Shown here in pieces: positions 5,118-62,805 of a stretch of DNA of 64,000 nucleotides (the first letter of the stretch is position 1; each line of letters opens with the position of its first letter). The stretch comes from Escherichia phage nepoznato. Where the stretch lies: sequence record NC_052658.1; one strand, given 5' to 3'. Position numbers and translations under genes: made by a program. The notes beneath the pieces are model-generated. The model did no database searches and had not been told where the DNA came from. It saw only the letters and a list, made by a program, of their open reading frames with translations.

Positions 5118-5312
5118 ATGCAGAGCGGAGAAGAACTTTTAGAGAAACAATTCTCAACGCGTCAACAAGCTTTAAGTTATATGGTTTTTCTAAGCAATCT
5201 TGATGTGAATGAGATACTTTTACGGCGCGAAGGTAATTTCTGGAGCGTTAAATATCATGCAACAAGGTCTGTAATCTACCTGGAAGAGGCGGAATTCTCT
5301 TTGGTAGAATGA
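5118..5312 (+). CDS. hypothetical protein
   Basis: 64-aa ORF preceded by hairpin and RBS AAGGAGGG. Confidence 0.45.
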   Translation: MQSGEELLEKQFSTRQQALSYMVFLSNLDVNEILLRREGNFWSVKYHATRSVIYLEEAEFSLVE

Positions 5313-5326
5313 TCCGAGGAGTAGTT

Positions 5327-5899
5327 ATGCGTTCAACTTTCACTGGCAAAATAAACGCTGGTTTGATTTTTACCGCAGTAAGCATTCTTAGCAAAAAGTT
5401 TAAAGTTGTTAACTTACCTGTGTGTGTCGATTTCGATCATGTTTTTGATCCTTCGAACCCCACTCGTTGCATAGTAAGGAGTAATGTTGAAAACCCAACA
5501 GAAAATCTTTTTTATGTAACAAAACCATCTCAAAGCATACTTAACCAGGTTGAGGCGAAATTGATACCTAACGGTAAATATTACTCCTTTTTACCTTGTA
5601 AGTCGGTTGAAGTAGAGAATAGCAGTACTTTCGCTAACAACTTGTCTGTATTCGTTTTCTTTGTTTCGCACGAAGATGAAACAGATGAAATGGTAGCAAC
5701 AGTGAGATCACTTTATGACTCTTTAGGGGTTGTTTATAGACAACAAGTGTGCGAAAATAATAAAGCCTGTGTAGATTTCATTATCAACGGTATTTGTGTT
5801 TGTAGAGTAGAATCTTTTTGGCTGCACGATACATATGTGACTGTAGCAGAGGTTATATCTGAACCAAAATTTAGTCATGCTGTTTCGTTAATAATTTGA
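5327..5899 (+). CDS. hypothetical protein
   Basis: Track ORF 5309-5899; start moved to internal ATG preceded by GAGGAG. Confidence 0.45.
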   Translation: MRSTFTGKINAGLIFTAVSILSKKFKVVNLPVCVDFDHVFDPSNPTRCIVRSNVENPTENLFYVTKPSQSILNQVEAKLIPNGKYYSFLPCKSVEVENSSTFANNLSVFVFFVSHEDETDEMVATVRSLYDSLGVVYRQQVCENNKACVDFIINGICVCRVESFWLHDTYVTVAEVISEPKFSHAVSLII

Positions 5900-5909
5900 G
5901 GAGGAAGGA

Positions 5910-6239
5910 ATGGAAATTACTACAGAACAAGCCCTTATCGACGAGGGTCGTAAAATCTTAGAAAAGCATTTAGGGGAGATTCATAAAACTCCTGGCTATT
6001 TGGGTTGGAGAATTGTTGAAGCTGTAGATTTCCTTCCTCGTAACAGTAAAAGCGTCGAAATGCGATCTCTTTTCTTATTAGTAAAGGTGGATGGGGATAC
6101 ACCTTTTAAAGATGCCGCAGAGCATATTGAAAAAGTTGAAGAGAAAGCTTATGCAGAATTTGCCGATCTTGTTTTAGAACAAGAGATTGAAGGAAAGGTG
6201 AATATTTTTATTTTCTTAGATTTTGAGGAGGATAAGTGA
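5910..6239 (+). CDS. hypothetical protein
   Basis: 109-aa ORF, RBS GGAGGAAGG upstream. Confidence 0.45.
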   Translation: MEITTEQALIDEGRKILEKHLGEIHKTPGYLGWRIVEAVDFLPRNSKSVEMRSLFLLVKVDGDTPFKDAAEHIEKVEEKAYAEFADLVLEQEIEGKVNIFIFLDFEEDK

Positions 6240-6979
6240 TCATACATAGAGAAATTACTGTTAAAAGCGATCAAGATCTTTTTATAATTGGAGATCTACA
6301 CGGTTGTTATAATTTGTATGAAAAAGGAAAGGCAAAGTTAGGTATCCGAGATACAGATGTAGTTGTATCTTTAGGAGATCTTACTGACCGTGGAAAGCAA
6401 AACTTTCGTTGTGTTTTAGAATTTACTCGTAAACACAATCGCTACGCTATTCGTGGAAATCATGAAGACATGATGATTAAAGGTATGCTGGAAGGAGATC
6501 GTAGCTACTTCGAGTGTTGGTATCAAAATGGAGGATATACAGTCCTTGAAGAATGTGGTGAAGAAGGAGCTACAGCCTTAGCAATGATGACAGAAGATTT
6601 ACCTGTTGTTCTCATTGTTAACTACAGAGGCATGAAACTTGCGTTTATTCATGGTGGGTATCCATCTTCTTTGGAATATCTCCCTGTAACAGATATTCCA
6701 GAATACACTTTGAAGATGACAAAAACACAGGAAAACCGTTTTGCTGAAGCACTTATGTGGGACAGAGATATGGTGGACTGTGCTAAAGAGGGAATGAAAC
6801 TTCCTGTTGTGATGGGTGTGGACTATGTGTTTCATGGACACTCTTATGTAAAAACACCTATTATCAATGCGAATCGTGTTTATATGGATACTGGATCTGT
6901 GTTCAATAATAACTTAACATTTGCTTATTTCGATATGGACGGTGGTCTTCAATTTTATTCAACTCTTGAGGAGGATTAA
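6236..6979 (+). CDS. Ser/Thr protein phosphatase (calcineurin-like metallophosphoesterase)
   Basis: Metallophosphatase motifs GDLHGCY, GDLTDRG, GNHED, GHS in order; GTG start overlapping upstream stop. Confidence 0.8.
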   Translation: MIIHREITVKSDQDLFIIGDLHGCYNLYEKGKAKLGIRDTDVVVSLGDLTDRGKQNFRCVLEFTRKHNRYAIRGNHEDMMIKGMLEGDRSYFECWYQNGGYTVLEECGEEGATALAMMTEDLPVVLIVNYRGMKLAFIHGGYPSSLEYLPVTDIPEYTLKMTKTQENRFAEALMWDRDMVDCAKEGMKLPVVMGVDYVFHGHSYVKTPIINANRVYMDTGSVFNNNLTFAYFDMDGGLQFYSTLEED

Positions 6980-7287
6980 TGTATAAGATTACAATTATTC
7001 AAAGTGTAGGTAATATCCGTAAAGAAGTTATCTTAGAAACAGAAGATGTTAATCTTGTTCGTGAGATTGTTTTTAAGGAAGATAACCTGCAAACTGTAGA
7101 ATCGGATGCACCGAATCTTATGGTGGATCAAGAATATTCTGAACTTCGTCGTATTTTTGAAGAGATTCAGAAGAAAGAAACACAACCTACCATAAAACCT
7201 TTTGGTCCTTATGATCCGAGCAATCCTAGCAGTCCTTGGATCATGAGAAATACGGAACCCTATACACCTTTTGAAATTACTTGTTGA
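6979..7287 (+). CDS. hypothetical protein
   Basis: 102-aa ORF with RBS GAGGAGG. Confidence 0.45.
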   Translation: MYKITIIQSVGNIRKEVILETEDVNLVREIVFKEDNLQTVESDAPNLMVDQEYSELRRIFEEIQKKETQPTIKPFGPYDPSNPSSPWIMRNTEPYTPFEITC

Positions 7288-7294
7288 GGTGATT

Positions 7295-7876
7295 ATGGCA
7301 GAACTGTTCTATACGGGAGTTGGAAGTAGAGACATATCTGAAGAAGAGTGGGCTTTGATGGTAGGCATAGGAAAATGGCTTTCAAACCTTGGGTTTAAAT
7401 TAAGGTCTGGGAAGGCAGAGGGTAGTGATTCTGCTTTTGAAACAGGTGTCCAAGAGTCTGAAAATCCTACTAACAAGGAGATTTATGTTCCTTGGGAAAA
7501 TTTCAAAGGTAATCAGATTCCAGGTGATGTTATTGTTCTTGCAAAACCAGATACAATGAACTATGCTATCTCTGTGCAATGGATCAAAGATGTTCACCCA
7601 GCTTATGAAAAGCTTAAGCAGGGTGCTAGAAAATTGCACCAACGTAATGTGCATCAGGTGTTAGGCAGAGATTTGGAGAATCCTGCTCCATCGTGTTTCT
7701 TGTTGGCTTGTGCTAATACTGATAAACATGGGGATGCAAAAGGTGGAACAGCTACGGCTTGGAAGATAGCTAAAGCCAATAATGTTCCTTGTTTAAACAT
7801 TCGTGGGAAAACAAAACAAGAGATTTACGATTTTCTACGACCTTTGGTAATGAGGGCAATAACAAGTGATTCCTAA
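7295..7876 (+). CDS. SLOG/DprA-like Rossmann-fold nucleotide-binding protein
   Basis: GVGSRD ... SGKAEGSDSA ... GGTATAW pattern; start moved to ATG after GAGGTG. Confidence 0.4.
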   Translation: MAELFYTGVGSRDISEEEWALMVGIGKWLSNLGFKLRSGKAEGSDSAFETGVQESENPTNKEIYVPWENFKGNQIPGDVIVLAKPDTMNYAISVQWIKDVHPAYEKLKQGARKLHQRNVHQVLGRDLENPAPSCFLLACANTDKHGDAKGGTATAWKIAKANNVPCLNIRGKTKQEIYDFLRPLVMRAITSDS

Positions 7877-8378
7877 ACGTAAACGTGGTGAACAAAGAAC
7901 AAATTTGGCAGAAATCTTAGATTACAACATGGTTAATGATGTGACAAAAGAAATTCTCCCTATTGTAGAAGATATTCTTCGTAGAGGGTTACGATTCTGC
8001 TCGGATCGGGTACATTTCATGTGGACACATAAAAGTGACTCCGCTTTGAATTTCTATCCTTTAGATTATACTCTGAACAATACAGAGATGAAAGATATCA
8101 ACAAATACTTAATGGGATATAAAGATATAACCGAAACTGTTCTTGGAGAATTGGCAGAGATCTTGGCTAATGATATCCTTAGAAATATTAATAAGGCTCT
8201 TGACAGAAGTCCAGCAGGAGTAGTAGTATCTTTTGCTGTGCCAGATATGGTTAAATATGAGTCTACAATACCTAATAAAGCTTATGCCTTTCTTCGGAGA
8301 GACGTTCGTGGAAATGTGTTGGAGATGGAGTCAAACTACAAGATTGAGGAGGTTTTATGGCAGAGTTCGGATCAGTAA
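7866..8378 (+). CDS. hypothetical protein
   Basis: 170-aa ORF in tandem array. Confidence 0.45.
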   Translation: MIPKRKRGEQRTNLAEILDYNMVNDVTKEILPIVEDILRRGLRFCSDRVHFMWTHKSDSALNFYPLDYTLNNTEMKDINKYLMGYKDITETVLGELAEILANDILRNINKALDRSPAGVVVSFAVPDMVKYESTIPNKAYAFLRRDVRGNVLEMESNYKIEEVLWQSSDQ

Positions 8379-12384: not shown

Positions 12385-13034
12385 TGTCAAATTCAAAACC
12401 AGTGGTTGCTTATCAAGTAGATCGTAATGATGGTGAAGGAAGTGTTGTTATTTTCAGTACACACGGTCTTGAGGCTCGTCGAAAAGGTGCATATCGTTTA
12501 GAATGTGAGTTTGAAGACTGCACAAGCCACCGTGTCAAACAATTCGATCAATATGCTGATAAAGGCTTCGTCCCTATCAAAGCCTTACTGGAAGATGGTT
12601 GGTGGGTATATTCTGCTTTTGATGGTGTTAGACTCGACGAACCTGTAGGAGGTCTTGAGGCAGATTTTGATGAATGCGAAGATGGCTTGTATATTGAAGA
12701 GGATCTTGTATTCTCCCTTGACGAGAAAAGTGTGTGGAAGAACTGGGAAGAAATGGAACGTCACGCGCATTTTATCAACAATGCTTTGATTCGTAAAGCT
12801 TGGTTTATGGAGGCGGTGAAGGTAGCGTATCCGCAGTTCACCTTTACAGAGGTTTGGGGCGGTCCACACCACATCACCCATACAGCATTTTTCGACTTCC
12901 CTGGTTCACGTTACAAAGGTAATATAATGTGGGACTGGGATGAGAATAAAGTACCATCTGTTAAAGACTTTCGTTGCTATGTTTGCCAAGGTGATCAAGA
13001 AGCCCTTGACAAATACCTACAAAGTCTGGTATAG
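12384..13034 (+). CDS. hypothetical protein
   Basis: 216-aa ORF, overlapping start/stop with upstream gene. Confidence 0.5.
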   Translation: MSNSKPVVAYQVDRNDGEGSVVIFSTHGLEARRKGAYRLECEFEDCTSHRVKQFDQYADKGFVPIKALLEDGWWVYSAFDGVRLDEPVGGLEADFDECEDGLYIEEDLVFSLDEKSVWKNWEEMERHAHFINNALIRKAWFMEAVKVAYPQFTFTEVWGGPHHITHTAFFDFPGSRYKGNIMWDWDENKVPSVKDFRCYVCQGDQEALDKYLQSLV

Positions 13035-13051
13035 TGCCAACATCTGAACAA

Positions 13052-13080
13052 AGCCTCCTGTTTCAGGGGGCTTTTCTTTT
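13052..13080 (+). terminator. probable intrinsic terminator
   Basis: GC-rich imperfect hairpin (AGCCTCCTG..CAGGGGGCT) followed by T-run. Confidence 0.45.
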
Positions 13081-13092
13081 ATAGGAGGGAAT

Positions 13093-13572
13093 ATGTTTCA
13101 AGTAAATATCAATGTGCATAATAGTTACTCTGATTGTGAAACGTGTGGCTATAATTCATCTAATGTTGTTCGTATTAGTGGCGATTTAGGAGAAGCTTCT
13201 TTTGGAGAAGAAGCAAGTTGCTTTAGTGGTATGGATGCAGAATGGAATGATATTGCACATTGGTTGGTGAGCAAACTAAAAGAAAAAGAGAAACCCTTTC
13301 CTACTCTGCTTGATCGTTCCTTTGTAGAAGATGCAGGTAAAGCATATGCGGATTATGCTTATGCAGACGGGAAATATTTGGAAGATGATAAGGCTAACCA
13401 TTTGCTTTATGTTTATTATGAAGCTGAATCTGCCTACGATAATTATTATAGCATGTCTAACATCCTCCGTCTATTTGCAGAGTTTGATATTTATTTTGAA
13501 GTAGAATTTTCAGAAGATGATACTTACGAATATGATTCTTATGATCCATTTGAGGAGGACGAGGGTGAATGA
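13093..13572 (+). CDS. hypothetical highly acidic protein
   Basis: 159 aa, D/E/Y-rich; RBS AGGAGGG. Confidence 0.5.
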   Translation: MFQVNINVHNSYSDCETCGYNSSNVVRISGDLGEASFGEEASCFSGMDAEWNDIAHWLVSKLKEKEKPFPTLLDRSFVEDAGKAYADYAYADGKYLEDDKANHLLYVYYEAESAYDNYYSMSNILRLFAEFDIYFEVEFSEDDTYEYDSYDPFEEDEGE

Positions 13573-14309
13573 TAGAACGAAAACCCTTACCAGATAGAGA
13601 TTACTTGTTATCAAGGTTTAGTGTGGAGAATGGTCGTCTTGTTTGGAAACCTAAACCTTCTACAACAAAAGAGAACAAAAGGTGGAATAGCAGATACGCA
13701 GGGAAGATTGCAGGGACTATTGATAAAGTTGGTTACTCTCATGTCAAAATAGATGGTATTGTATACTTGGAGCACAGAGTTTGTTTTAAAATGTACCATA
13801 ATTACTGTCCAGATGTTATAGATCATGATGATGGCAATAAGCTTAATAATGCGGAAAGTAATTTATTGGATAGTAACTATTTATTAAATAATAACAATAG
13901 ACATGTGGATGGGTTAGAAGGTATTTATGAAAAGGATGGTGTTTTTCTTTGGGTTATAAACTACAACCAAGAAACTTTCTCTGTTTCAGGTTTCAAAACT
14001 AAAGAGGAAGCTACTGTAGCTAGAGCTTTAGCAAAACAAGAAATTTTGAAAGGATCTTATATCAAAAAAGAAAAGAAGCGTATAGATAACACTTCAGGAT
14101 TAAGTTGTGTGTTTGTGGCAACAAGAGAGAGAACATTCTTTTTCAAGTTTGTGTTTGACAAGACCACGTATTGCAAATATGGTTTCAACGATCCAGAGAG
14201 ATGTGCTATAGCTCTGGAGAAGCTAAGGTTGAAGGTGATGAAAGAAAAATATAAACCTGCAAATAAAAGCATTTGCGAAAAACATAAGGAGGAGATTTAT
14301 GCCGCGTAG
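13569..14309 (+). CDS. free-standing HNH homing endonuclease-like protein
   Basis: GYSHVKIDGIVYLEHRV and IDHDDGNKLNNAESNL motifs typical of HNH nucleases. Confidence 0.6.
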   Translation: MIERKPLPDRDYLLSRFSVENGRLVWKPKPSTTKENKRWNSRYAGKIAGTIDKVGYSHVKIDGIVYLEHRVCFKMYHNYCPDVIDHDDGNKLNNAESNLLDSNYLLNNNNRHVDGLEGIYEKDGVFLWVINYNQETFSVSGFKTKEEATVARALAKQEILKGSYIKKEKKRIDNTSGLSCVFVATRERTFFFKFVFDKTTYCKYGFNDPERCAIALEKLRLKVMKEKYKPANKSICEKHKEEIYAA

Positions 14310-15114
14310 AGTCATATTCATAACTGGCGCAGGACTATCTGTGGATAGCGGTATCCCAGCTTTTAGAACAGATACTTCTTCAGGGGAGGCGTTATGGTCT
14401 TCTTATAATCTTTCTGAAGTCTGTGACATTTTCAACTTCCGTGACGGTTATCAGCAAGAACAAGGTATTCTTGATGCTATGGGCGGTTTAGATGCGGAAG
14501 GATATAACCTCTACCGTAAAACTCACGACTTTTACAATAAACGTCGCGCGGAATTAGAGAAAGTTGACCCGAATCCGGCACATCTTCAGATTGGGGAATG
14601 GTTCAAAAAACATGGTGCAGAAAAGATTATTAACATCACTACTAACGTTGATGACCTCCTTGAACGAGCAGGAGTAGATAGGGAAGAAGTGCTACATGTG
14701 CATGGTTTTCTTCCTGAAATTACTTTTCAAAGAAAAGCTGGACAACCTACAATTGTAAAAGATGTTGGTTATCAAGCCATAGATGTAGATGACTACCATT
14801 ATGTAAAACCTAATGTAATCTTCTTTGGGGAAGCTGCTCCACTTTACACAGATATGTATCATATTTTTGATACACTGACGGCTCAAGATATGGTTATCGT
14901 TGTAGGCTGCTCTAACCAAGTAATCAACTTCAACTGGGAACTCTTCCCTGCCCTGAATATTGGGGTTAAGATGGTTGTAGTTAACCCAGGTTTGAATTTT
15001 GTAGAACAAACTCTCTACGAAGAACGTGGAGTGCTTGTCTACCGAGAGAAAGCAGGAACAGTCTTCAGTGATGAAGGCTTTATCAAAATGGTCGAAGACC
15101 ACTTAAACAAATAA
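14299..15114 (+). CDS. Sir2-family NAD-dependent protein (sirtuin-like)
   Basis: Sirtuin motifs GAGLSVDSGIPAFR, TTNVDDL, HVHG, KPNVIFFGEAAP; no obvious Zn-binding Cys tetrad. Confidence 0.75.
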   Translation: MPRRVIFITGAGLSVDSGIPAFRTDTSSGEALWSSYNLSEVCDIFNFRDGYQQEQGILDAMGGLDAEGYNLYRKTHDFYNKRRAELEKVDPNPAHLQIGEWFKKHGAEKIINITTNVDDLLERAGVDREEVLHVHGFLPEITFQRKAGQPTIVKDVGYQAIDVDDYHYVKPNVIFFGEAAPLYTDMYHIFDTLTAQDMVIVVGCSNQVINFNWELFPALNIGVKMVVVNPGLNFVEQTLYEERGVLVYREKAGTVFSDEGFIKMVEDHLNK

Positions 15115-15123
15115 ACCACTCAA

Positions 15124-15143
15124 GGGGCTTCGGCCCCTTTCTT
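15124..15143 (+). terminator. GGGGC-UUCG-GCCCC hairpin with U-tract
   Basis: Same tetraloop hairpin as at 1627, followed by UUUCUUAUU. Confidence 0.5.
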
Positions 15144-15157
15144 ATTAGGAGAATAAA

Positions 15158-15430
15158 ATGACTGAAGAAATCCGTGATTACTACCTTGCACATTACGTTT
15201 ACTACTTTGCTAATGCTACACAAAAAGGGGAAGGTAATCTTTACTTGGCAACAGGGCATGGAACAGGTGTTAGGAAATCAAATATTGATAATGCCTTGGC
15301 TCAAGTGGCTGCTGGGCTAGAAGATAAACTTAAAACACCTGTAGTTGTAGTGATGCAAAACATAAGTTACCTAGCAAGTTGTACTGAAACCGAATTTAAC
15401 GCGTCTGAAACGCAATCTAACGAAGAATAA
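15158..15430 (+). CDS. hypothetical protein
   Basis: 90-aa ORF, RBS AGGAGA; last gene of plus block. Confidence 0.5.
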   Translation: MTEEIRDYYLAHYVYYFANATQKGEGNLYLATGHGTGVRKSNIDNALAQVAAGLEDKLKTPVVVVMQNISYLASCTETEFNASETQSNEE

Positions 15431-15436
15431 AATAAA

Positions 15437-15462
15437 GGCACCCACTTGGGTGCCTTTCCTAT
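15437..15462 (+). terminator. intrinsic terminator at convergent junction
   Basis: GGCACCC..GGGTGCC hairpin then UUUCCUAUUUU. Confidence 0.65.
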
Positions 15463-21943: not shown

Positions 21944-22621
21944 CTATTTAATGTTCAATCTAGCACACAAGCGAGAAACAGTTTTAGCATCCCACTTACC
22001 ACCACGTGCTGTTGCGATTTTCTTACTATTGAATTTTTCAGCAATAGTTTTGTAAGGTGTATTTAAATCTCTAAGGATTTCTAAGCGTTCACGGAATGTC
22101 TCTGCAAAAGCATCTGCTTTAACAGAATTGTATTCCATTTTTCCTTTTCTACGTGCAGCGGCAGTTTTAGGATTAGCACTGCCTAATAAAACACCTTTGC
22201 TTTTTGCTACAGCAAGACCCTTTTTAATACGATCAGCAATACCTCTGACTTCTTGTTCAGCCAAAACAGACAGAAGCTGTATAACCATTTTATCTGCGTC
22301 TGGCATGATGGCTATCTTAACATCGATCATTTCTAGAAGAGTTGCTACGGAGGCGTTGTTACGACCCAAGCGGTCAACTTTAGCTACCAATAAAGTTGCT
22401 CCGGTAGCTTTACACATTTCAACCGCTTTAACCAGTTCCTTACGTTGCTTCCAATCGCCCTTACCAGAATAGTATTCAGAAAATTGACCAATAACTTCAG
22501 CATCAGGCACAGAGTCTAAGAAGTAACGGATATCGTTCTCTTGGCTCTCCATACCATATTGTGCCTCACCTTTTTTCTGTTTAGAAAGACGACTGTAAAC
22601 AACAAACTTTTTCATAACCAC
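21944..22621 (-). CDS. small serine recombinase (resolvase/invertase family)
   Basis: N-terminal VVYSRLS catalytic-Ser region, VAKVDRLGRN, C-terminal HTH-like tail; about 225 aa. Confidence 0.8.
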   Translation of the reverse strand: MVMKKFVVYSRLSKQKKGEAQYGMESQENDIRYFLDSVPDAEVIGQFSEYYSGKGDWKQRKELVKAVEMCKATGATLLVAKVDRLGRNNASVATLLEMIDVKIAIMPDADKMVIQLLSVLAEQEVRGIADRIKKGLAVAKSKGVLLGSANPKTAAARRKGKMEYNSVKADAFAETFRERLEILRDLNTPYKTIAEKFNSKKIATARGGKWDAKTVSRLCARLNIK

Positions 22622-42244: not shown

Positions 42245-42787
42245 TCACAAATATCGTCTTTGCGGTATTTTGTCTGGGAAAAGTATTTCGATCAGTTTGT
42301 TATGATATTTACCTAAAAGATTTTGCCCTTTCCAGTTGACCGGATTTAGCACCCCTGGTTCATACATCCCCATTCCAATTCCGTAAACCTTATCGTAGGG
42401 GCTTGCTTCAACAAACGTTTTGTATTGGTAAAGGTGTAAGTCTGCATACAAATCTGGATTCTGTACATATTTCAAGCATAAACCTCGCATAACAATACGC
42501 TCACGGTTCTCTTCCCATACGTTGTTATCAAAATCCGACACTGCCCTACCCATACGTTTGTAATAAGCTTGGATCTTCTCATCTTTCCGTATCAAACTAT
42601 GAGTCAGAATAGCCTGTGCAGTGTTGTGGTCATTAAAAAGCAAAGCTTTACGCCACATCATATATTGTTCGACACAATTAAATGTTTGATTGTAACCTGG
42701 TTCGGTTTCTGTAAAGGGTGCAATATACCAATTACTAAACACATCTTTATGTGAAAAGAAGAATACATAATCATCAGTTATTCGCAT
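42245..42787 (-). CDS. NADAR-domain (YbiA-like, DUF1768) protein
   Basis: FFFSHKDVFSNWY, EQYMMWRKA, YGIGMG and WKGQNLLGKYHNKL blocks matching the NADAR/YbiA family. Confidence 0.7.
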   Translation of the reverse strand: MRITDDYVFFFSHKDVFSNWYIAPFTETEPGYNQTFNCVEQYMMWRKALLFNDHNTAQAILTHSLIRKDEKIQAYYKRMGRAVSDFDNNVWEENRERIVMRGLCLKYVQNPDLYADLHLYQYKTFVEASPYDKVYGIGMGMYEPGVLNPVNWKGQNLLGKYHNKLIEILFPDKIPQRRYL

Positions 42788-42998
42788 TTTTCATACTCTC
42801 CAAAATTTCACGTTGCCCTTTCTGATAGGCTTTCATCAGGACCACTTTAAGGTTTGTCTCCAAAAGATCTTCATTGTAGTTATACCGCTCCACAACATAT
42901 GTCAATTCATCATAAAGATCAAGAACGGGGTAGAATACAGGGTTATCTGCTAAACGTGCCATAGTTTCTCCTTTGTTAGTCCATCCACCAGTAGCCAT
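42774..42998 (-). CDS. hypothetical protein
   Basis: 74-aa ORF. Confidence 0.45.
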   Translation of the reverse strand: MATGGWTNKGETMARLADNPVFYPVLDLYDELTYVVERYNYNEDLLETNLKVVLMKAYQKGQREILESMKNANN

Positions 42999-43341
42999 AA
43001 ACTGCGTCTGCGTCGATGAGTTTGTGTTTGTTGTTCCGCATGTAGTCTAAGATAAGTAGACGTTTATTGTATCTGGAGAGATTATGACCCTCTTTTCCGC
43101 CATAGTCAAAATATTTTGCAAGATCTTTACACTCAAACAAAATCAGTTCGGGAGTTTCTTCACACTGGTCTGTCTGGTACACTTGACGAATGATCATGTA
43201 TACATCATCGTCTTCCGCTAAATGCTCTACTGGTCCACATCCAGCAGGAACAAATTCATAGTCCCATCGGATCAGATGTTTCTCTACTGCTTCAAAGAAA
43301 TCCATCCTTTCGTTGCGCATAATTTGAACGTCAACTAACAT
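42976..43341 (-). CDS. hypothetical protein
   Basis: 121-aa ORF. Confidence 0.45.
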   Translation of the reverse strand: MLVDVQIMRNERMDFFEAVEKHLIRWDYEFVPAGCGPVEHLAEDDDVYMIIRQVYQTDQCEETPELILFECKDLAKYFDYGGKEGHNLSRYNKRLLILDYMRNNKHKLIDADAVYGYWWMD

Positions 43342-44519
43342 GTTTCCTCCTGTAATGTTCCACCATAAAGTTTATAAATGTTTTGTATTGATGCCATGCA
43401 AGATAACTCCGCTGTCTCTGTGTAGCCATCTGGCATAGCATATTTGCTCACTGCTTCCGTGTGAAGGACACGCTTACAACGCTTTTCTGCATCTTTGCAT
43501 TGCTTCACAGTAGGGAAGTGCCACACTTGGCCCTGTTTCATAGTAAACACATTACGACTATTTTGTTCTTTGATACGGCGATTACTATTATTAGCAATAC
43601 CAAACTTCAGTGCACAGATAATATCTTGCTCATCGTAAATATAATTAATGTAGGCTTGTTGTTGATTTTTGTTAGCACACTGCGGACAACCTTGTCCTAT
43701 GTTTAAAAGGTTGTTTGCAGTTCCTTTTTGTTCCCCATGACTCTTACATACATATTTAAACTTACCTATAGAAGATGGTTTGGTAATCCATCCTATCCAA
43801 ACATACCCTTTCTTTTCTATTTTCTTTCTTACTTTATACGTAATCTGTTCCGCTGTATACCTATAAGATGCAGAGCAACGGCAGGGTAAGTGTCCATATT
43901 TAAGATTGCTACGCGTCATATAAAACTTACCATCACATAGTCCAGCTTTAACATATTCATCATGAGAACAAACAGGACACTGAACCATCCATACCGGATC
44001 ACACCCTTTACGTTCCCCCGTGTTGGTGAAAATAGTGCCTTCCTTAAACTTCCCTGTAGAAAAGAAATCTGCAATATGTTGATCGTCGGGTATTGTTTGT
44101 GACCTCCTTGTGTTCTCATACCTACATATAAGACAACCACTGCCATGTTTAAAACTATCAAAACTACATGTATTCCATTCATGACCATACCTACAACGTA
44201 GCATCATTTTCGTACGCGCACCTTTAAACGGTTCTACGATACCTATGATGGTAATCCCCTTAGCTTCCGCTATTGGTTTACATTCAGTAAGGTATGTTTT
44301 TAAATCTTTAATTTGACCTGCACACATAGGACAACCACTACCACGTTTAAAACTGTTAATACTTGTAGTATCCCATTTATAACCACAATGACACAACAAA
44401 TCAAGTTTTGTATTAACCCCTTTCCATTCTCCCGTCCATCCTAAGATTTGGATTTGCTTACTCTCTGCTATGGGTTGACACTCTTCTTTATATTGTTCCC
44501 ATGATTTTGGTGCTGCCAT
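43335..44519 (-). CDS. Cys-rich protein with three tandem zinc-ribbon-like repeats
   Basis: Three repeats of GW.G......L.C.CG..W.T....F..GSGC..C in 394 aa; function unknown, possibly nuclease-associated. Confidence 0.5.
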   Translation of the reverse strand: MAAPKSWEQYKEECQPIAESKQIQILGWTGEWKGVNTKLDLLCHCGYKWDTTSINSFKRGSGCPMCAGQIKDLKTYLTECKPIAEAKGITIIGIVEPFKGARTKMMLRCRYGHEWNTCSFDSFKHGSGCLICRYENTRRSQTIPDDQHIADFFSTGKFKEGTIFTNTGERKGCDPVWMVQCPVCSHDEYVKAGLCDGKFYMTRSNLKYGHLPCRCSASYRYTAEQITYKVRKKIEKKGYVWIGWITKPSSIGKFKYVCKSHGEQKGTANNLLNIGQGCPQCANKNQQQAYINYIYDEQDIICALKFGIANNSNRRIKEQNSRNVFTMKQGQVWHFPTVKQCKDAEKRCKRVLHTEAVSKYAMPDGYTETAELSCMASIQNIYKLYGGTLQEETC

Positions 44520-44554
44520 CTGTTGCTCCTCTTATTAATCTGATATCCATACAA

Positions 44555-44580
44555 GAGAAAACCCGCCGAAGCGGGTTTAA
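44555..44580 (-). terminator. intrinsic terminator (minus strand)
   Basis: On minus strand AACCCGC-UUCG-GCGGGUU followed by UUCUC. Confidence 0.5.
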
Positions 44581-44594
44581 TAAATCTCAACTTA

Positions 44595-45734
44595 TTAGAA
44601 CACGCTACCTAATGTGGTGGAACGTTGTGTTACAGGCTCCAGCACCACTCGCAGAGTGTTTCCTGGTGTAGTGCTCATCACCAGAATCTTACCACCTTCA
44701 ATCAGATCACAAGTTAGACCATCAGCAGTTGCACACAGATCAATATGTGGGTCGCCATCTTCATCCAGGATAACATAACTGTTGGTTTCCATTGCTTCCA
44801 CTTCATCATCTTTCAAACTTTGCAGATAGATGTTCAGGGAACAAGCACCCGACAAAAACTTAGTAGGGGTGAAGTCGTGCCAGTTATTGATCCAATTCAC
44901 CTTCAGGGTTTTGCCATTAGCTACGATAGAAGCCACATTCCATTTAGCATCGTTGCCTAAAGAAATACCCATCATTTCCAGACATTCTTTAAAAGTCATT
45001 TTTGGATAGAAATTCAATTCTTCTACAATACCTTGAATAACATCAAAAGACAACTCTGTGCTAACATCCCATAAACGTTGGAAGTTATCTACGTGTTTTT
45101 TATTTACCAAGTTCTTATCCAAGTAATCTAACATAGTTTCACTAGACAGTTTATCGTAATTGAAACTGTAATAGATACGACTAGGACGGTTTACAAAATA
45201 TTCCGAGATATAGCCACTATTTTTAGTGAGGATGTAAAGTTTATTTCCACTTCCTGTTCCATCCAACAAGGTCAACAGTGCTTCCTGATCTTCTTTCTTA
45301 GCGTACACTTTATCAAATTCGTCAAATAAAACAACAGCACGATCTGTAATTTTACTCATAAATTCTAAGAAGCCAGCATCTGTGTAAGGCTGTGTAACCA
45401 AAATGGTTGGAATACCTAAACCTTCTGTGGACATTAGAGACATGCTAATCAGTTTAGCTAACATCGTCTTACCACTGCCCTTTGTCCCTGTCAGTAACAC
45501 CCCAGTATTTTTACCTTCTTTACTACGACGAGCAAATGTTTTAATAACATGTGCGGCGCGGTCTTTAGTTTCCCCATAAAGAGTGTTCGGAAGAGAGAAA
45601 CTTTCGCCACGCACTAAAGAGTAGTTACCGTGCGGATCGCAGTTGACAACCCAAACTCCAGCAGGAAGTTTATTAGCTTCAACACCATATTCCTTATTTA
45701 CAACAGCCACATCTCCAAAAATAGTGTATTTCAT
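44595..45734 (-). CDS. AAA-type ATPase
   Basis: Walker A GTKGSGKT, Walker B VLFDEFDK. Confidence 0.6.
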   Translation of the reverse strand: MKYTIFGDVAVVNKEYGVEANKLPAGVWVVNCDPHGNYSLVRGESFSLPNTLYGETKDRAAHVIKTFARRSKEGKNTGVLLTGTKGSGKTMLAKLISMSLMSTEGLGIPTILVTQPYTDAGFLEFMSKITDRAVVLFDEFDKVYAKKEDQEALLTLLDGTGSGNKLYILTKNSGYISEYFVNRPSRIYYSFNYDKLSSETMLDYLDKNLVNKKHVDNFQRLWDVSTELSFDVIQGIVEELNFYPKMTFKECLEMMGISLGNDAKWNVASIVANGKTLKVNWINNWHDFTPTKFLSGACSLNIYLQSLKDDEVEAMETNSYVILDEDGDPHIDLCATADGLTCDLIEGGKILVMSTTPGNTLRVVLEPVTQRSTTLGSVF

Positions 45735-56961: not shown

Positions 56962-57834
56962 ATGAAAGATTTGTACCAAGATGTTTTTTCTTTTTTAGAT
57001 CGCACTTCAGAAACATACACTAGAGAGAATGCAAACAAACCTTCCCACCTTGTTAACACGCACAGGGATCTCTTGGCGGGGATTTTAAGCAAACATATGG
57101 CAATGACACAGATACTGCCAAAAAACTTGTCAGAATGGCATACAGAAGGTTTTGGACATATTCACGACTTGGATTATCTGCTCTCTCCTCTTACAAACTG
57201 TTGTCTTGTTAATTATCAAGATATGTTAGAGAATGGTTTTAAGATCGGTGCTGCACAGATAGAAAAACCAAAATCTATTGGAGTAGCTACTACAGTGCTA
57301 ACTCAAATCATCCAAGCTGTTGCCTCCAGTCAGTATGGAGGTCAGACGTGTGCGCACATTGATAAAGGTCTTAGTCCTTATGTTGAAGCCAGTTTCCTTA
57401 AAAACATGGAGATAACCAAACGTCGCTACGGTTGTTATGCAAGGAAAGAAGCCCTAGAAATGACCGAACAAGATGTATATGACGCTATGCAAACTCTTTT
57501 GTATCAGGTTAACACTTTAATGAGTGTTAATGGACAATCTCCTTTTATTACAATCAGTATGGGTCTGGATACCTCTGTTTTTGGCAGAATGATCACAGCT
57601 AACTATCTTAAAGTGCATAGTAACGGTCTAGGTAAAGATCATGTAACGCCTGTATTCCCTAAAGTTATTTTCTTTTTACAAGAAGGTGTTAACATGAAAC
57701 CTAGTGATCCTAACTACGACCTTAAGCAACAAGCTTTGGCATGTTGTGCTGATCGTATTTATCCAGATTTTATTTCTGTTCCTTTGAACAAAGAAGTTAC
57801 GGGATCAGCAGATGGTACCGTTACGAGTATGGGT
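56962..57834 (+). CDS. nrdD: anaerobic ribonucleoside-triphosphate reductase NrdD, exon 1
   Basis: Colinear with T4 NrdD N-terminal half (NANK, RDL.AGI.SKH, NCCLV, ENGFK.G.AQIE.PKSIGVAT, SPMG); track ORF stop lies inside the intron. Confidence 0.85.
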
Positions 57835-58604
57835 AAACTATAACTGCTCATGTAAAATCTGCCTAAACGGGGGAACTCTCAACAGAGACAATCCCGTGCT
57901 AAACGTAACAGAACTCCCAACACAGAAGAAGGGGGTACTGATATGAGAAAACAAATTCGTGATTTTGAAGGGTATGAAATTGACGAGCTTGGAAATGTTT
58001 ATTGTACCAGGTATAAGGATGAAAGAATCCTTCGCTCGTGGGAAGAAATAAACACAGGATACCAACTTGTCAGAATACGTAAAAACAAGAAAACTGTTTG
58101 CTTTCGGGTGCACAGACTTGTAGCTGAAGCGTTTTTACCCAATCCAGACAATTTACCTTATGTGAAGCATAAAGGTGACAATAGGAAAGACAACAGTGTA
58201 TACAATCTTGAGTGGGGATCTTGTCCAGACAACACGCAAGAGGGTTACGATAATAACTGTTATGCTTTCTACACAAGGTGTCACAGTGTAAAAGCTACTC
58301 ATAAGGCTACTGGTGAAGTTTTTTACTTTAAAAGTCTGAGATGTTGTGCTGACGCTTTAGGGTTGGACAGAAAAAGAATATCTGCAATCTTAAAACAAGG
58401 AGCACCAAATAATTATGATTATGAGTTCTGTTACGAAATGCCTAACGACTAGCTGTGATGAATGTAGCAGCGTAGGGTGTAAGCCTATGACACCCCAAAT
58501 GGTAGACATGCTTTAAGCATGAAGATATAGTCTGATCTGCATGGTGACATGCAGCAGCACGTAATGGTGCGGGAGTGGCCTTGCGAGCCACTTTGAACAT
58601 AATG
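57835..58604 (+). mobile_element. group I intron in nrdD carrying an HNH homing endonuclease ORF
   Basis: 770-bp insertion between SMG and CRSFLS codons; exon 1 ends in T and the insertion ends in G; boundaries inferred from T4 NrdD alignment. Confidence 0.6.
57943..58452 (+). CDS. intron-encoded HNH homing endonuclease
   Basis: GYEIDELGNVY...VHRLVAEAFLPNP...KHKGDNRKDNSVYNLEWG motifs typical of phage HNH endonucleases. Confidence 0.75.
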   Translation: MRKQIRDFEGYEIDELGNVYCTRYKDERILRSWEEINTGYQLVRIRKNKKTVCFRVHRLVAEAFLPNPDNLPYVKHKGDNRKDNSVYNLEWGSCPDNTQEGYDNNCYAFYTRCHSVKATHKATGEVFYFKSLRCCADALGLDRKRISAILKQGAPNNYDYEFCYEMPND

Positions 58605-59546
58605 TGTAGAAGTTTCTTGTCATACTATGCAACAGAGCAAGGAGAAAAATATGATGGACGATTCAACCTTGGAGTAGTTTCTATCAACTTGCCTCTGATT
58701 GCTGCGGAAGCGAGAAGTAAAGGAGAATCTTTCACCGATCTTCTTAATAAACATATGGAGATAGCCTACGATGCTCACATGCTACGTGTAAACCGTATCA
58801 GACATACCAAAGCATCTGAAAACCCTATTCTTTTCATGGAAGGGGCTTTAGCGCGTTTAAATGCCAATGATGAAATTGGTGTTTTGTTTGAAGGTGGTTA
58901 TGCTTCTATTAGTATTGGTTATGTAGGTCTTGCCGAAGCTTTGGAAATCCTTTATCCAGAAGAAAAAGATAAAAAGGAACTTGGTAAAAACATTCTGCAA
59001 CATATGAAAGATGTGTGTGCTGTGTTTAAAGAGCGATCTAAGCTGGCATTTAGTCTCTATGGAACTCCAGCAGAATCTTTGTGCTATAAGTTTGCAACAG
59101 CTTTAAATGAAAAATACCCAGGTTTGGTAGAAAGAGACTATCTTACTAACTCTTTTCATCAACCTGTATGGTTGGTAACAAATCCTTTTGAAAAATGGGA
59201 TTATGAAGCAGGTTTTGCACAGATTAGTAATGGTGGTAACATAAGTTATGTCGAAACACCAAACTTAAAGAATAACTTAGAAGCTTTGGAGACTTTAGTA
59301 GACTACGCTTATGAACATATTCACTATTTTGGTATTAATCAGCCCGTGGATCAATGCTTTAAGTGTGGTTTTCATGGAGAATTTAAGGCAACGGCTAAAG
59401 GGTTTGAGTGTCCTGATTGTGGCAACCATGAAGAAGAAACTATTTCTGTAGTTAGACGTGTATCAGGGTATCTTTCTGCTCCTAATTCACGGCCTTATAA
59501 CAAAGGTAAAATGCAGGAAGTTTTGCAAAGGGAGAAACATCTTTGA
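58605..59546 (+). CDS. nrdD: anaerobic ribonucleoside-triphosphate reductase NrdD, exon 2
   Basis: CRSFLS...NLGVV.INLP, TPAE.LCY.F, Zn-site CFKCG...CPDCG and glycyl-radical motif RVSGYL; joined product about 604 aa. Confidence 0.85.
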   Translation, partial: CRSFLSYYATEQGEKYDGRFNLGVVSINLPLIAAEARSKGESFTDLLNKHMEIAYDAHMLRVNRIRHTKASENPILFMEGALARLNANDEIGVLFEGGYASISIGYVGLAEALEILYPEEKDKKELGKNILQHMKDVCAVFKERSKLAFSLYGTPAESLCYKFATALNEKYPGLVERDYLTNSFHQPVWLVTNPFEKWDYEAGFAQISNGGNISYVETPNLKNNLEALETLVDYAYEHIHYFGINQPVDQCFKCGFHGEFKATAKGFECPDCGNHEEETISVVRRVSGYLSAPNSRPYNKGKMQEVLQREKHL

Positions 59547-60233: not shown

Positions 60234-60839
60234 ATGCAACATAGTGTAGTAGTCAACATGCCGAATAGTGGGGATAAATCTTTTGGTGTCCCTGCTAAAA
60301 AAGTGTGGAAAGCCCATTTTCATCTTACTTTATCTAACGTTAGTTCTGAAGAGTTGATGAAAGCAGCTAAGATTATTGGTGCCAAATGCACAACAATTGA
60401 TTTACATCGGGATACAAAGTCTCAACGTGATCGTATGTTAACAAAGTATCAAAGCGATCTCGACACTACTTTAATGTTGCAGTGTGTAGAAAAACTTGAG
60501 AATGCAGGTTTCAATGTTGTTCGTTACAAACTGGAACGAATGTTTAAACATGTTGCCTGTGTTCTTTTCATGGATCTAAGTAAAGAAAATTATGGAGAAG
60601 TTCACATTAAGACTTCAGCAAGTGATCCCGAAGTAGAAACAAACTTCTTCCGTATTTCTTCTAATGCTGAAGAAATTGATTACCGATTTTATAATGCTCG
60701 CTTATATTCCGCAGAAGATAAGTTGCGTTTCAATGAAGCGTATGATATGCTCTTGAACAGTGGGATACAGATAAAAGGCTACCACATAGAACAAGTGGTA
60801 GTGGACAGTAATCTTAACTTAGACGCATGGTGGGCTTAA
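60234..60839 (+). CDS. hypothetical protein (one H-x-T-x motif; weak 2H-phosphoesterase resemblance)
   Basis: 201 aa with FHLTL near residue 28; second motif not evident. Confidence 0.45.
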   Translation: MQHSVVVNMPNSGDKSFGVPAKKVWKAHFHLTLSNVSSEELMKAAKIIGAKCTTIDLHRDTKSQRDRMLTKYQSDLDTTLMLQCVEKLENAGFNVVRYKLERMFKHVACVLFMDLSKENYGEVHIKTSASDPEVETNFFRISSNAEEIDYRFYNARLYSAEDKLRFNEAYDMLLNSGIQIKGYHIEQVVVDSNLNLDAWWA

Positions 60840-60840
60840 T

Positions 60841-61497
60841 ATGACTATTAAACATATCTCTTTTGATGTATGGAACACACTGATCACAGCAAACTCCAAT
60901 TACGCAGACATGCGAGCCTGGACTATCGCAAAATATGGAGATATTACGGAAGTGGAAGCAAGAGCAGCTTATAAGAAGATCAAAAAGGAACTGGATAATG
61001 CAGCACTTCAAGGCAAAGCCGAGTGTGCAGCATACGCCTGGGAAAGACTTGGTTCTGAACTTGGGATAACACCTTGGAAGTCTGCAAAGCTTCGTTTCGA
61101 GTGTGAACAGTGGTTCCTTAAGTTTCCACCACACGTAGCCGTGGATCTGCCGATGTACTTGCTGTATCTTTCGGGACGTTATGATTTGAGTATTAAGAGC
61201 AATACCAACTTTATATCAGGGGATATCCTGCGTCGTGCTTGTAAGTTTGATAGTTGGAATTGTTTTGAGTTCACCCATTTCTCGGATGAAGCTTTACTTT
61301 GTAAACCAGATCCGCGATTCTTTGCTCGCACGCTCACATATTCTCCGATCCCTCTGTTAGGGCACGAAGTATTGCACGTAGGCGATAGTGAAGAATATGA
61401 TGGAAAATGTGTTGACTTAGGATTTAACTTCTGTCATATTAAGAACCCTAACGACTTACTAGAGAAACTTAAAAGAGGAGAAATTGTAAATGCGTAA
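60841..61497 (+). CDS. HAD-superfamily hydrolase-like protein
   Basis: Motif I-like FDVWNTL near N-terminus and motif IV-like HVGDSEEYD. Confidence 0.5.
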   Translation: MTIKHISFDVWNTLITANSNYADMRAWTIAKYGDITEVEARAAYKKIKKELDNAALQGKAECAAYAWERLGSELGITPWKSAKLRFECEQWFLKFPPHVAVDLPMYLLYLSGRYDLSIKSNTNFISGDILRRACKFDSWNCFEFTHFSDEALLCKPDPRFFARTLTYSPIPLLGHEVLHVGDSEEYDGKCVDLGFNFCHIKNPNDLLEKLKRGEIVNA

Positions 61498-62317
61498 TCA
61501 AACTCAAATTTTTGCAAATAAATTTGATGACCTGGAAACTGCTACTTTTGATATCCAAGATTATTCAAAATTGAAATTTGGTAGTAACCAAGCCGCGCGT
61601 CGTATGGGTAAAGAATTGGCACTTCAGTTTTTTGCTCAAGTGGCAATGAAACATATTGGGGAACAATTTGTTATCATTCCTTCTCCTTACAACCATGTGC
61701 ATAATGCTGCAACAATGATGACAGATCATTTTATTAATTACTTTAACATGTTGCAATCACAATATAATCAAGGTCGTTCAGCAGAACTGGACATTATTCA
61801 TCGTAAAGTTAGCTATATCAACGATTATGGTTTCTTGGATAAAGCTAGTCGTAAGAAACTTATTGATGGGGATACATTCTACTGCAACAAAGAATTCTGG
61901 GGTGATAAGAAGCTTGTATTCATTGATGATGTAAATATCACTGGAACGCATGAAGACAAACTGATTGAGATTCTTGATGAAAATCAAGTTAAAAATGATG
62001 TTTACTTCCTGTATTTTGCAAAATATGAAGGTAATCAAGCAGATACCGAAGCTAAACTGAATTTTAACTACATTAATACACCAGAAGCGTTTGTTAAAAT
62101 GATTAATGAAGAACGTGATGCACAGTGTCTTGTTCGTCCTATTAAATATCTTATGGGCCAAAATCATGAAGACTTCAAAATCATTCTTAGCCAATTGCCA
62201 CACTACTATGTAGAGCAACTTTTCTTCGGCTGTTTAGCTGAAGGCTACAATCGAATTGCAAAGTATACTGAAAACTTTGAATTCTTGGATCGTTACACAA
62301 AACAACACATTCTGTAA
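61490..62317 (+). CDS. phosphoribosyltransferase-fold protein
   Basis: PRPP-binding-loop-like KKLVFIDDVNITGTHEDK. Confidence 0.5.
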   Translation: MRNQTQIFANKFDDLETATFDIQDYSKLKFGSNQAARRMGKELALQFFAQVAMKHIGEQFVIIPSPYNHVHNAATMMTDHFINYFNMLQSQYNQGRSAELDIIHRKVSYINDYGFLDKASRKKLIDGDTFYCNKEFWGDKKLVFIDDVNITGTHEDKLIEILDENQVKNDVYFLYFAKYEGNQADTEAKLNFNYINTPEAFVKMINEERDAQCLVRPIKYLMGQNHEDFKIILSQLPHYYVEQLFFGCLAEGYNRIAKYTENFEFLDRYTKQHIL

Positions 62318-62331
62318 TAAGGAGCTAAAAA

Positions 62332-62805
62332 ATGCTTAAAATGAAAACAGGTAATCTTATTGATGCCGCTAAAGCAGGTGAAGTAACTGTTATTGCTCAT
62401 TGTTGCAATTGTATGTGTAATATGGGGGCAGGAATTGCTCCGCAAATTAAACGAGCATTCCCTTATGCATATGCGGCGGATTTAGACACAATGGCTGGTG
62501 ATCAGAGTAAGTTAGGTTCTTTTAGTTTAGGGGTGCCAGACGAACAATCAGACCCTTTGGTATATAATCTATACGGGCAATACCGTTACGGATATAATGC
62601 TAAAGGTCGTCAGTTGGACTATGATGCCCTATACGATGCACTAATAGCTATGGCTAATGATTTGCTTCTCCGTGACCAAAAATGTAAGATCGGTTTACCT
62701 ATGATTGGAGCGGGACATGCCGGAGGTAATTGGGCTATCATCCAAGTGATGATTGAAGAAACTTTAGTAAAAACAGGTCACGATGTGACTATTTATAAAC
62801 TTTAA
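62332..62805 (+). CDS. macro-domain protein (ADP-ribose binding/processing)
   Basis: VIAHCCNCMCNMGAGIA and IGLPMIGAGHAGG glycine-rich loops typical of macro domains; 157 aa. Confidence 0.55.
   Translation: MLKMKTGNLIDAAKAGEVTVIAHCCNCMCNMGAGIAPQIKRAFPYAYAADLDTMAGDQSKLGSFSLGVPDEQSDPLVYNLYGQYRYGYNAKGRQLDYDALYDALIAMANDLLLRDQKCKIGLPMIGAGHAGGNWAIIQVMIEETLVKTGHDVTIYKL

Follow-up and report, generated by a model that had tools for sequence, protein, structure and literature searches.

Introduction

The majority of viral sirtuins belong to a clade of their own in phages of proteobacteria, for which a KptA/Tpt1-like role in RNA repair was predicted from three gene neighbourhoods, namely those of jumbo phages, of rV5 and Mydo, and of the T5-like phage SP15 (Iyer et al. 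2022, PMC9503650). The Sir2 proteins of Vibrio phages phiSt2 and phiGrn1 have been modelled, and the zinc site was absent from them and also from KVP40 Sir2; deacetylation of host proteins, for example Acs, was proposed as their target (Skliros et al. 2016, PMC5107563). In this study, the gene for a protein of this kind (sir2, 14299..15114, +) was analysed in a stretch of 64,000 nucleotides of Escherichia phage nepoznato (accession number, NC_052658.1), hereafter called the window. The window is affiliated with Phapecoctavirus (phAPEC8-like myovirus, Stephanstirmvirinae), and its best DNA match was Escherichia phage ECML-183-2 (98%). The sir2 product matches at 100% identity the protein that is annotated as 'Sir2-like protein' in Escherichia phage nepoznato; the gene, its zinc loss included, had been annotated and discussed before as part of a known phage gene family, and by itself adds nothing beyond the existing annotation.

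Gene call and distribution of sir2

The open reading frame (ORF) of sir2 (271 amino acids, ATG to stop) is preceded by a strong ribosome-binding site (Shine-Dalgarno; AAGGAGGAGATTTATG) and is the second-to-last gene in a long plus-strand block, which is followed by convergent minus-strand genes. Its product matched Pfam SIR2 (PF02146) far beyond chance, at 76.5 bits against a cut-off of 24 (E=3.2e-21; profile positions 1-178 of 180), and phrog_2162 'Sir2 (NAD-dependent deacetylase)' at E=1.2e-95. A first-pass annotation made from the letters of the window alone had placed a sirtuin-family gene at 14299-15114; the ORF coincided exactly, and the four motifs quoted for it were all recovered, GAGLSVDSGIPAFR at residues 10-23, TTNVDDL at 114-120, HVHG at 133-136, and KPNVIFFGE at 170-178. 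Judged from its sequence, sir2 is a gene for a real, intact sirtuin, of a zinc-less and class III-like phage type. It is without annotation in ECML-183-2, though the product there is 100% identical, because the GenBank record (OL631481.1) contains an annotation gap (78430-81167) over a 216-amino-acid gene, the partner and HNH genes described below, and sir2.

The sir2 product was compared with 50,697 phage records by tblastn, and homologues were found in 989 of them, including T5-, rV5- and phAPEC8-like phages, jumbo phages and Vibrio phages. Nearly all of these records carry the annotation Sir2 or NAD-dependent deacetylase. Identity to the sir2 product was highest in phAPEC8-like phages (63-86%), followed by T5-like (50-59%), Mydo-like (about 53%) and rV5-like phages (about 47%), and fell to 32-38% in those of Vibrio and in jumbo phages. 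The product is a direct member of the phage sirtuin clade (phrog_2162; T5 'T5.102 Sir2-like protein', rV5, Mydo, KVP40/phiSt2), with which it has the missing zinc site, TTNVD and Y-x-x-R in common, and the full-length matches to rV5-like (47%), Mydo (53%) and T5-like (50-59%) proteins place it in the proteobacterial-phage clade of Iyer et al.

Conserved residues and loss of the zinc site

The sir2 product was aligned residue by residue to Sir2-Af2 and E. coli CobB, then to 28 clade members, and then to 258 homologues, among which a close-clade subset (n=119) was defined. The nicotinamide adenine dinucleotide (NAD)-binding loop GAGLSVDSGIPAFR (14326..14367, +) aligned to GAGISAESGIPTFR of Sir2-Af2 and CobB, and G10, A11, G12, S17, G18, F22 and R23 were invariant among the 28 clade members. 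The GAG loop, F22/R23, and F176/E178 of FFGE, all of which align to Af2 and CobB, were invariant or nearly so in the homologue alignment. The segment TTNVD (residues 114-118; 14638..14652, +) is a variant of TQNID, in which N116 (258/258 homologues) and D118 (253/258) are conserved and the Gln is replaced by Thr115; this position is T or S in 116 of the 119 close-clade sequences (~97%). The catalytic His135 of HVHG (codon 14701..14703, +) aligned to the catalytic His of Sir2-Af2 and to CobB H147, and was invariant in all 258 homologues. The class III signature Y-x-x-R is present as Tyr79-Asn-Lys-Arg82 (14533..14544, +), aligned to CobB Y92/R95 with FYNKRR paired to FYNARR, and its Y and R were invariant in 119/119 close homologues; the offset in CobB residue numbering was confirmed by the engineered I131C variant seen in the 6rxm alignment. 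This signature recognises succinyl and malonyl groups. Loss of catalytic residues on alignment, which the first-pass annotation had named as one result that would tell against its reading, was not seen, and both catalytic and NAD-contacting residues are kept. Because the NAD-binding and catalytic machinery is complete, there is little doubt that the predicted product uses up NAD+ in a transfer reaction that depends on a substrate.

The zinc module is represented by a remnant at residues 137-169 (14707..14805, +), which contains no cysteine, belongs to the same length class as the CxxC...CxxC module of Af2, and was modelled as beta strands at a predicted local distance difference test (pLDDT) score of ~95. 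It was the most variable segment of the protein in the 28-member alignment. The whole protein contains two cysteines, C42 and C204, neither of which lies in the HG-KPNV segment where sirtuins carry CxxC...CxxC, so that there is no zinc tetrad, as had been noticed at first pass. Cysteine counts in this region were 0-1 in the close clade, and more distant relatives keep four. Across the 258 homologues (set P0001-P0269), loss of the zinc cysteines co-varied with Gln-to-Thr replacement in TQNID, and also with an acidic isoelectric point (pI); 151 sequences combined Thr with 0-1 Cys, 72 combined Gln with >=3 Cys, and 19 fell in the two off-diagonal T/Q cells, the sequences counted not being phylogenetically independent. 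The zinc-less phage clade appears, from these alignments, to be nested in a broader zinc-bearing group that shares W..Y....VC and FYN.RR. The close clade is acidic throughout (pI 4.6-6.1), and the sir2 product has a pI of 4.9 and a net charge of about -15. The ratio of nonsynonymous to synonymous substitution rates (dN/dS) of sir2 against relatives was 0.16-0.17, and the gene is therefore under purifying selection.

Structural comparison with known sirtuins

The AlphaFold model of the sir2 product (pLDDT 88) showed a Rossmann fold with a small domain, similar to solved sirtuins, and was closest to the class III deacylases CobB, Sir2-Af1 and SIRT5. The nearest solved structures were those of E. 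coli CobB, Sir2-Af1, and human and zebrafish SIRT5, which have the GAG loop, the catalytic His, the N and D of TQNID, FGE and Y-x-x-R in common with the sir2 product. Differences from these class III sirtuins are the low identity (~25%), the loss of the zinc cysteines, the Gln-to-Thr change in TQNID, strong acidity, and a substrate loop in which VYP is changed to VIN. The helical subdomain carries a 25-residue insert that is not present in rV5- and Mydo-like members.

The sirtuin fold is also common to SirTM (class M; macrodomain-linked, ADP-ribosylating), and a macro-domain gene occurs in the same genome as sir2. SirTM was not the closest structural match of the model, and the operonic or fused macrodomain partner typical of SirTM was not found at sir2, the sole macro gene being 47 kb away in another gene block. 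The structure prediction and comparison proposed in the first-pass annotation favoured the deacylase type and disfavoured the SirTM and defence-NADase types.

Predicted deacylase activity

Taken together as a prior, sequence and structure strongly favour an acyl-lysine deacylase, because the tunnel residues and Y-x-x-R are kept, the protein is strongly acidic, and there is no new conserved basic surface. To our knowledge, every characterised sirtuin of the CobB/SIRT5 structural type is a deacylase. On alignment and model, an NAD+-dependent lysine deacylase is the reading that we favour, at about an even chance, and we infer substrate class, acyl preference and biological role along the following lines. 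The sir2 product would be a catalytically competent zinc-less sirtuin, belonging to a phage clade descended from class III (CobB/SIRT5-type) enzymes. NAD+ would be held in the Rossmann cleft by the GAG loop, F22/R23 and N116/D118, and the acyl-lysine of a host or phage protein would enter the conserved tunnel lined by V117, F176 of FFGE, and V208. Tyr79/Arg82 would prefer acyl groups with a terminal negative charge (succinyl, malonyl), and acetyl might be accepted too. Attack of the acyl oxygen on C1' of the nicotinamide ribose would release nicotinamide, after which His135 would activate the 2'-OH and the intermediate would be converted to free lysine and O-acyl-ADP-ribose. Such an enzyme may provide an auxiliary function of large virulent phages, in which acylation is reset on proteins of replication, translation and nucleic-acid ligation, and NAD-salvage genes of the phage may compensate for its NAD+ cost in some relatives.

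Several points weigh against a deacylase. The zinc site is lost and the Gln of TQNID is replaced by Thr in this clade, so that its chemistry may differ; the zinc site is normally needed for sirtuin activity, and the hosts already have CobB. The cut-offs of the NCBIfam CobB-type models were all missed by far, the best scores being 98.4 against a cut-off of 243 bits (NF001753) and 84.3 against 320 (NF040867). The RNA- and tRNA-salvage neighbours found in about half of the lineages are not predicted by a generic deacylase role. The literature search yielded neither a published assay nor any other experimental work on a phage sirtuin.

Gene neighbourhoods and RNA repair

In a survey of gene neighbourhoods, all three published sirtuin contexts were reproduced. 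RNA ligase 1, cREC and Sir2 follow one another in this order in rV5, with a divergent polynucleotide kinase (PNK), a phosphoesterase and a tRNA cluster nearby, and Metallophos, RNA ligase, cREC, AAA_33 kinase, Sir2 and DNA ligase likewise occur in the order given in Mydo and in the metagenomic contig L017. The T5-like Salmonella phage Seafire encodes a HAD_SAK_2 'Swiss-army-knife RNA repair' phosphatase (Pfam E=4e-19) three genes 3' of sir2. The RefSeq name of Seafire HOU65_gp117 (L004 7129..7668, 179 amino acids), 'Sir2 (NAD-dependent deacetylase)', is wrong, the product being the HAD_SAK_2 phosphatase. In the jumbo Yersinia phage fHe-Yen9-04, Sir2 adjoins a Nudt16-like Nudix-cREC fusion annotated as 'nudix hydrolase' (L009 6763..7671), and the ORF named 'RNA ligase' (L009 4842..5288) best matched the anti-CBASS protein Acb1 (63 bits), with Nampt and an NMNAT-like gene upstream. 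New contexts were also found in distant clade members. In the metagenomic contig L013 (ERR9698296_130605, 6001..7100), from an unrelated phage, a gene for the peptidyl-tRNA hydrolase PTH2 (Pfam E=3e-33) begins within the sirtuin ORF, a tRNA-salvage neighbour outside the three types of Iyer et al. In another member, SmpB and tyrosyl-tRNA synthetase (TyrRS) lie near sir2, and in contig L019 an NMNAT-like/CoaE gene overlaps sir2 and HAD_SAK_2 is located 2 kb downstream. In total, RNA- or tRNA-salvage genes (cREC, RNA ligase, PNK-like kinase, HAD_SAK_2, PTH2, SmpB) were near the sirtuin in about half of ~10 sampled lineages.

These contexts would suit a Tpt1/KptA-like enzyme, which removes the 2'-phosphate from RNA, typically tRNA, in an NAD+-dependent manner once nuclease-cut ends have been healed. 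In sirtuin form, a phosphate oxygen held by Tyr79/Arg82 would attack C1'' of NAD+. The prediction of Iyer et al. covers this clade (rV5, Mydo, SP15, jumbo), to members of which the sir2 product is 47-56% identical, and the published RNA-gene neighbourhoods were seen again in rV5, Mydo, L017, T5-like, L019 and jumbo phages, to which the overlapping PTH2 gene and the nearby SmpB and TyrRS genes add new contexts. The place that KptA takes in other systems, amid RNA end-healing and sealing genes, is that of the sirtuin in related phages. NAD+ use, nicotinamide release and subsequent attack by the ribose 2''-OH are common to both enzymes, and the two-step chemistry of Tpt1 parallels that of sirtuins. 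KptA is a possible functional analogue of an unrelated fold (ADP-ribosyltransferase superfamily against Rossmann-fold sirtuins). In charge the sirtuin is strongly acidic and not basic; it has no clade-specific conserved basic residues beyond the canonical sirtuin ones, and its acyl-lysine tunnel residues are unchanged.

Genomic linkage is likewise divided. The closest complete genome carries the whole RNA module, comprising cREC (E=4e-17), Metallophos, RNA ligase, AAA_33 kinase, DNA ligase and a MazG-like gene, together with 9 tRNAs and a CCA-adding enzyme, but in this lineage the module lies ~30 kb upstream of sir2. RNA end-processing neighbours (RNA ligase, cREC, kinase, MazG, HAD_SAK, 2H, Nudix) were found neither in the local unit 13050-15457 nor elsewhere in the window, so the linkage seen in some relatives is missing there. 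Rnl1-type ligase and sirtuin overlap in some lineages only: most sampled Sir2 phages (T5-like) lack the ligase, Salmonella phage records number 289 with Sir2 against 14 with ligase, and Pseudomonas, the host genus for 175 of the ligase records, does not appear in the top ten genera of the Sir2 search. Several lineages, namely two distant T5-like contigs, a T4-like contig, a case adjacent to DNA polymerase, and a Vibrio phage, had no RNA-related neighbours, and the jumbo-phage '2H' neighbour is the ORF best matched by Acb1. We know of no sirtuin that acts on nucleic acid, and a published test of the Tpt1-like role was not found in the literature searched. Gene context favours an RNA- or tRNA-linked role, and for the sir2 product itself we regard Tpt1-like repair as the main rival of the deacylase reading, but as the less likely of the two. 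The wider proposal, that the zinc-less TTNVD clade acts on RNA and not on protein lysines, either as a Tpt1/KptA replacement or as a deacylase of N-acylated aminoacyl-tRNA, may be put forward tentatively.

Counter-defence, NAD+ hydrolysis and gene decay

The island of fHe-Yen9-04 can equally be read as anti-defence because of the Acb1 match and the Nampt and NMNAT-like genes upstream. A sirtuin in such a gene set might act on one specific protein of host immunity or stress, by ADP-ribosylation or by deacylation, or, in a variant, might deacylate the N-acyl-aminoacyl-tRNA made by GNAT toxins. Consistent with this, genes of established or probable anti-defence function lie near the sirtuin in relatives, namely Acb1-like 2H, Nampt and NMNAT-like cytidyltransferase genes in fHe-Yen9-04, Nampt and phosphoribosyl pyrophosphate (PRPP) synthetase in Mydo, PRPP synthetase and NADAR in L017, and the NMNAT-like/CoaE gene overlapping sir2 in L019; the PTH2 gene overlaps it in L013. 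PTH2 rescues acetylated aminoacyl-tRNA. The zinc-module remnant is also the most variable segment, as expected for an arms-race interface. On balance, a counter-defence modifier is improbable.

Plain NAD+ hydrolysis, for example in host shut-off or superinfection exclusion in the manner of the Thoeris, DSR, SIR2-HerA and pAgo SIR2 effectors, is very improbable. The NAD pocket is intact, the loss of the zinc module and the altered TQNID recall non-deacylase SIR2 domains, and an NAD+ hydrolysis role was originally described for KVP40 Sir2 (per Skliros et al., PMC5107563). Like the sir2 product, the defence SIR2 NADases (ThsA, DSR1/2, SIR2-HerA, SIR2-APAZ/pAgo, KomC, Avs5) have an NAD-binding Rossmann core and no classical zinc ribbon, but neither a match to a defence-system SIR2 model nor an associated SLOG, HerA, pAgo, STAND or TIR partner was found for sir2. 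A decaying or inactive remnant kept by linkage, as might be suggested by the missing canonical zinc site and the lack of annotation in the GenBank entry for ECML-183-2, the closest phage, is scarcely credible for a gene with an intact frame, catalytic residues (near-)invariant across 258 homologues, dN/dS of 0.16-0.17, a confidently predicted fold, and retention in 989 phage records.

Local transcription unit and HNH insertion

The sir2 gene lies in a small unit with an upstream partner gene and an HNH gene, bounded by terminator-like hairpins at 13050..13074 (+; 5' of the partner gene, 11-bp stem and T tail) and 15122..15139 (+; 8 nucleotides past the sir2 stop, GGGGC-TTCG-GCCCC stem followed by a T-rich tail). 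A promoter-like site (11/12 match) was located at 13006-13035. The partner gene (13093..13572, +; phrog_9509) encodes a protein of 159 amino acids with a pI of 4.05, an invariant CxxC...C and a poly-acidic tail, and adjoins or overlaps sir2 in all Stephanstirmvirinae checked, the copy of phage PaulScherrer being 39% identical. It had no Pfam match, and a fold search gave no informative result; neither of these lends support to the PaulScherrer annotation 'putative aminoacyl-tRNA synthetase'. Unlike other clade members, the Stephanstirmvirinae sir2 is located outside the RNA ligase/cREC/kinase module and is paired with this lineage-specific acidic CxxC protein. Downstream of sir2, a small conserved ORF of 90 amino acids (15158..15430, +; phrog_15991, E=5.6e-53) is the last before the convergent minus-strand block, occurs in the same position in phages nieznany and PaulScherrer, and is followed by a bidirectional terminator-like hairpin (15434-15457).

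The first-pass annotation had placed sir2 next to a free-standing HNH endonuclease gene, and the upstream ORF (13569..14309, +; 246 amino acids) indeed matched phrog_99 (E=2.5e-33), with Pfam HNH_3 at 22.2 bits, slightly below the cut-off of 24.8. The 724-bp stretch that contains it (insertion 13563-14286) was not present in phages nieznany and MirsaeidiM, the flanks of which align right to both edges and in which the partner stop codon overlaps the sir2 start (TAATG), and it was covered by only 2 of 79 related records. On this evidence, the HNH gene between partner and sir2, a trait of this phage, is a mobile gene of the homing-endonuclease kind, with no functional partnership with sir2. When sir2 (window 14299..15114) was compared with its counterpart in nieznany (L002, 13997..14797), the 5' two-thirds on the HNH side was far more diverged, in blocks of 63-93% identity, and the last 90 residues were 100% identical. 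The synonymous divergence (dS) of sir2 was 0.58 against 0.13 for the partner gene, a fourfold difference. Because sir2 is diverged on the HNH side and its dS exceeds that of the partner gene, we infer from these comparisons that flanking sequence was probably co-converted during HNH homing.

Other NAD/ADP-ribose genes and further observations in the window

The NADAR and macro-domain genes, with which sir2 had been linked at first pass as a heavy investment in NAD/ADP-ribose chemistry, are both real: the NADAR-domain gene (42245..42787, -) matched Pfam NADAR at E=1.8e-35, and the macro-domain gene (62332..62805, +) matched Pfam Macro at a borderline 23.0 bits against a cut-off of 22 and phrog_335 'phosphatase' at E=1e-55. 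The idea was fair as a theme. An operonic link was not found, because the two genes are 27 kb and 47 kb from sir2 in other transcription units and NADAR is on the opposite strand. The NAD/ADP-ribose genes as a whole are spread across 55 kb and differ in strand and gene block. The NAD/ADP-ribose theme of this phage agrees with a tendency to co-occurrence described by Iyer et al. 2022 (PMC9503650).

The NADAR gene lies ~550 bp from a gene for a CapR-domain/treble-clef endonuclease-like protein (43335..44519, phrog_681), with two small ORFs between, and an AAA ATPase with weak STAND-like matches (44595..45734) follows, all within 42245..45734 on the minus strand. The homologue of the CapR/treble-clef gene in nieznany is longer (1461 bp against 1185 bp here). 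The macro-domain gene ends a cluster (60234..62805) located 3' of nrdD/nrdG, which comprises a 201-amino-acid ORF (phrog_22504), a HAD-like hydrolase (60841..61497), a ComF-like phosphoribosyltransferase PRTase_3 (61490..62317, E=2e-41), and Macro. The cluster may be a nucleotide- or ADP-ribose-processing module; it corresponds to none of NARP1, NARP2 or NARP3 as the NARP3 paper outlines these pathways.

A 779-bp insertion (57835-58613), which is not present in ECML-183-2 and carries an HNH/NUMOD homing-endonuclease ORF (57943..58452), interrupts the gene for anaerobic ribonucleotide reductase, nrdD, and leaves it as two ORFs (56962..57843 and 58575..59546). A full-length match to the group I intron model RF00028 (58315..58554) was obtained in a search of 1.2 kb at a sub-threshold 39.3 bits against a gathering cut-off of 50 (E=2.9e-8), and the insertion probably represents a self-splicing intron that encodes a homing endonuclease, which recalls the intron of T4 nrdD (sunY).

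Upstream of sir2, the plus-strand block contains a calcineurin-like phosphoesterase gene (6236..6979, +; E=3e-13) and a DprA-like gene (7271..7876, +; phrog_768), the product of which we take to be a plausible member of the SLOG superfamily. With such a member, the phage would be richly supplied with domains of the NAD/ADP-ribose network. The stretch 5309..8378 of this block also encodes a 196-amino-acid protein labelled 'histidyl tRNA synthetase' in PHROGs (phrog_4806), which had no Pfam match. A serine recombinase/resolvase ORF (21944..22621, -; Pfam Resolvase, E=5e-18) is located amid small early-type genes of this virulent phage.

Implications

Genes of the sirtuin clade are conserved in ~2% of the phage genomes sequenced so far, among them that of the model phage T5 and those of many phages of therapy studies. 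If the sir2 product is a deacylase, large virulent phages would reset the protein acylation of their hosts. If it acts on RNA, it would be the first sirtuin with a nucleic-acid-linked substrate, extending sirtuin chemistry to nucleic acids and adding a step to phage tRNA repair, and it would provide a new counter-defence arm against host toxins that target tRNA. The covariation of zinc loss with the Gln-to-Thr change, the invariant Y-x-x-R, the uniform acidity, and the new PTH2 and SmpB neighbours offer handles for the biochemistry of this family.

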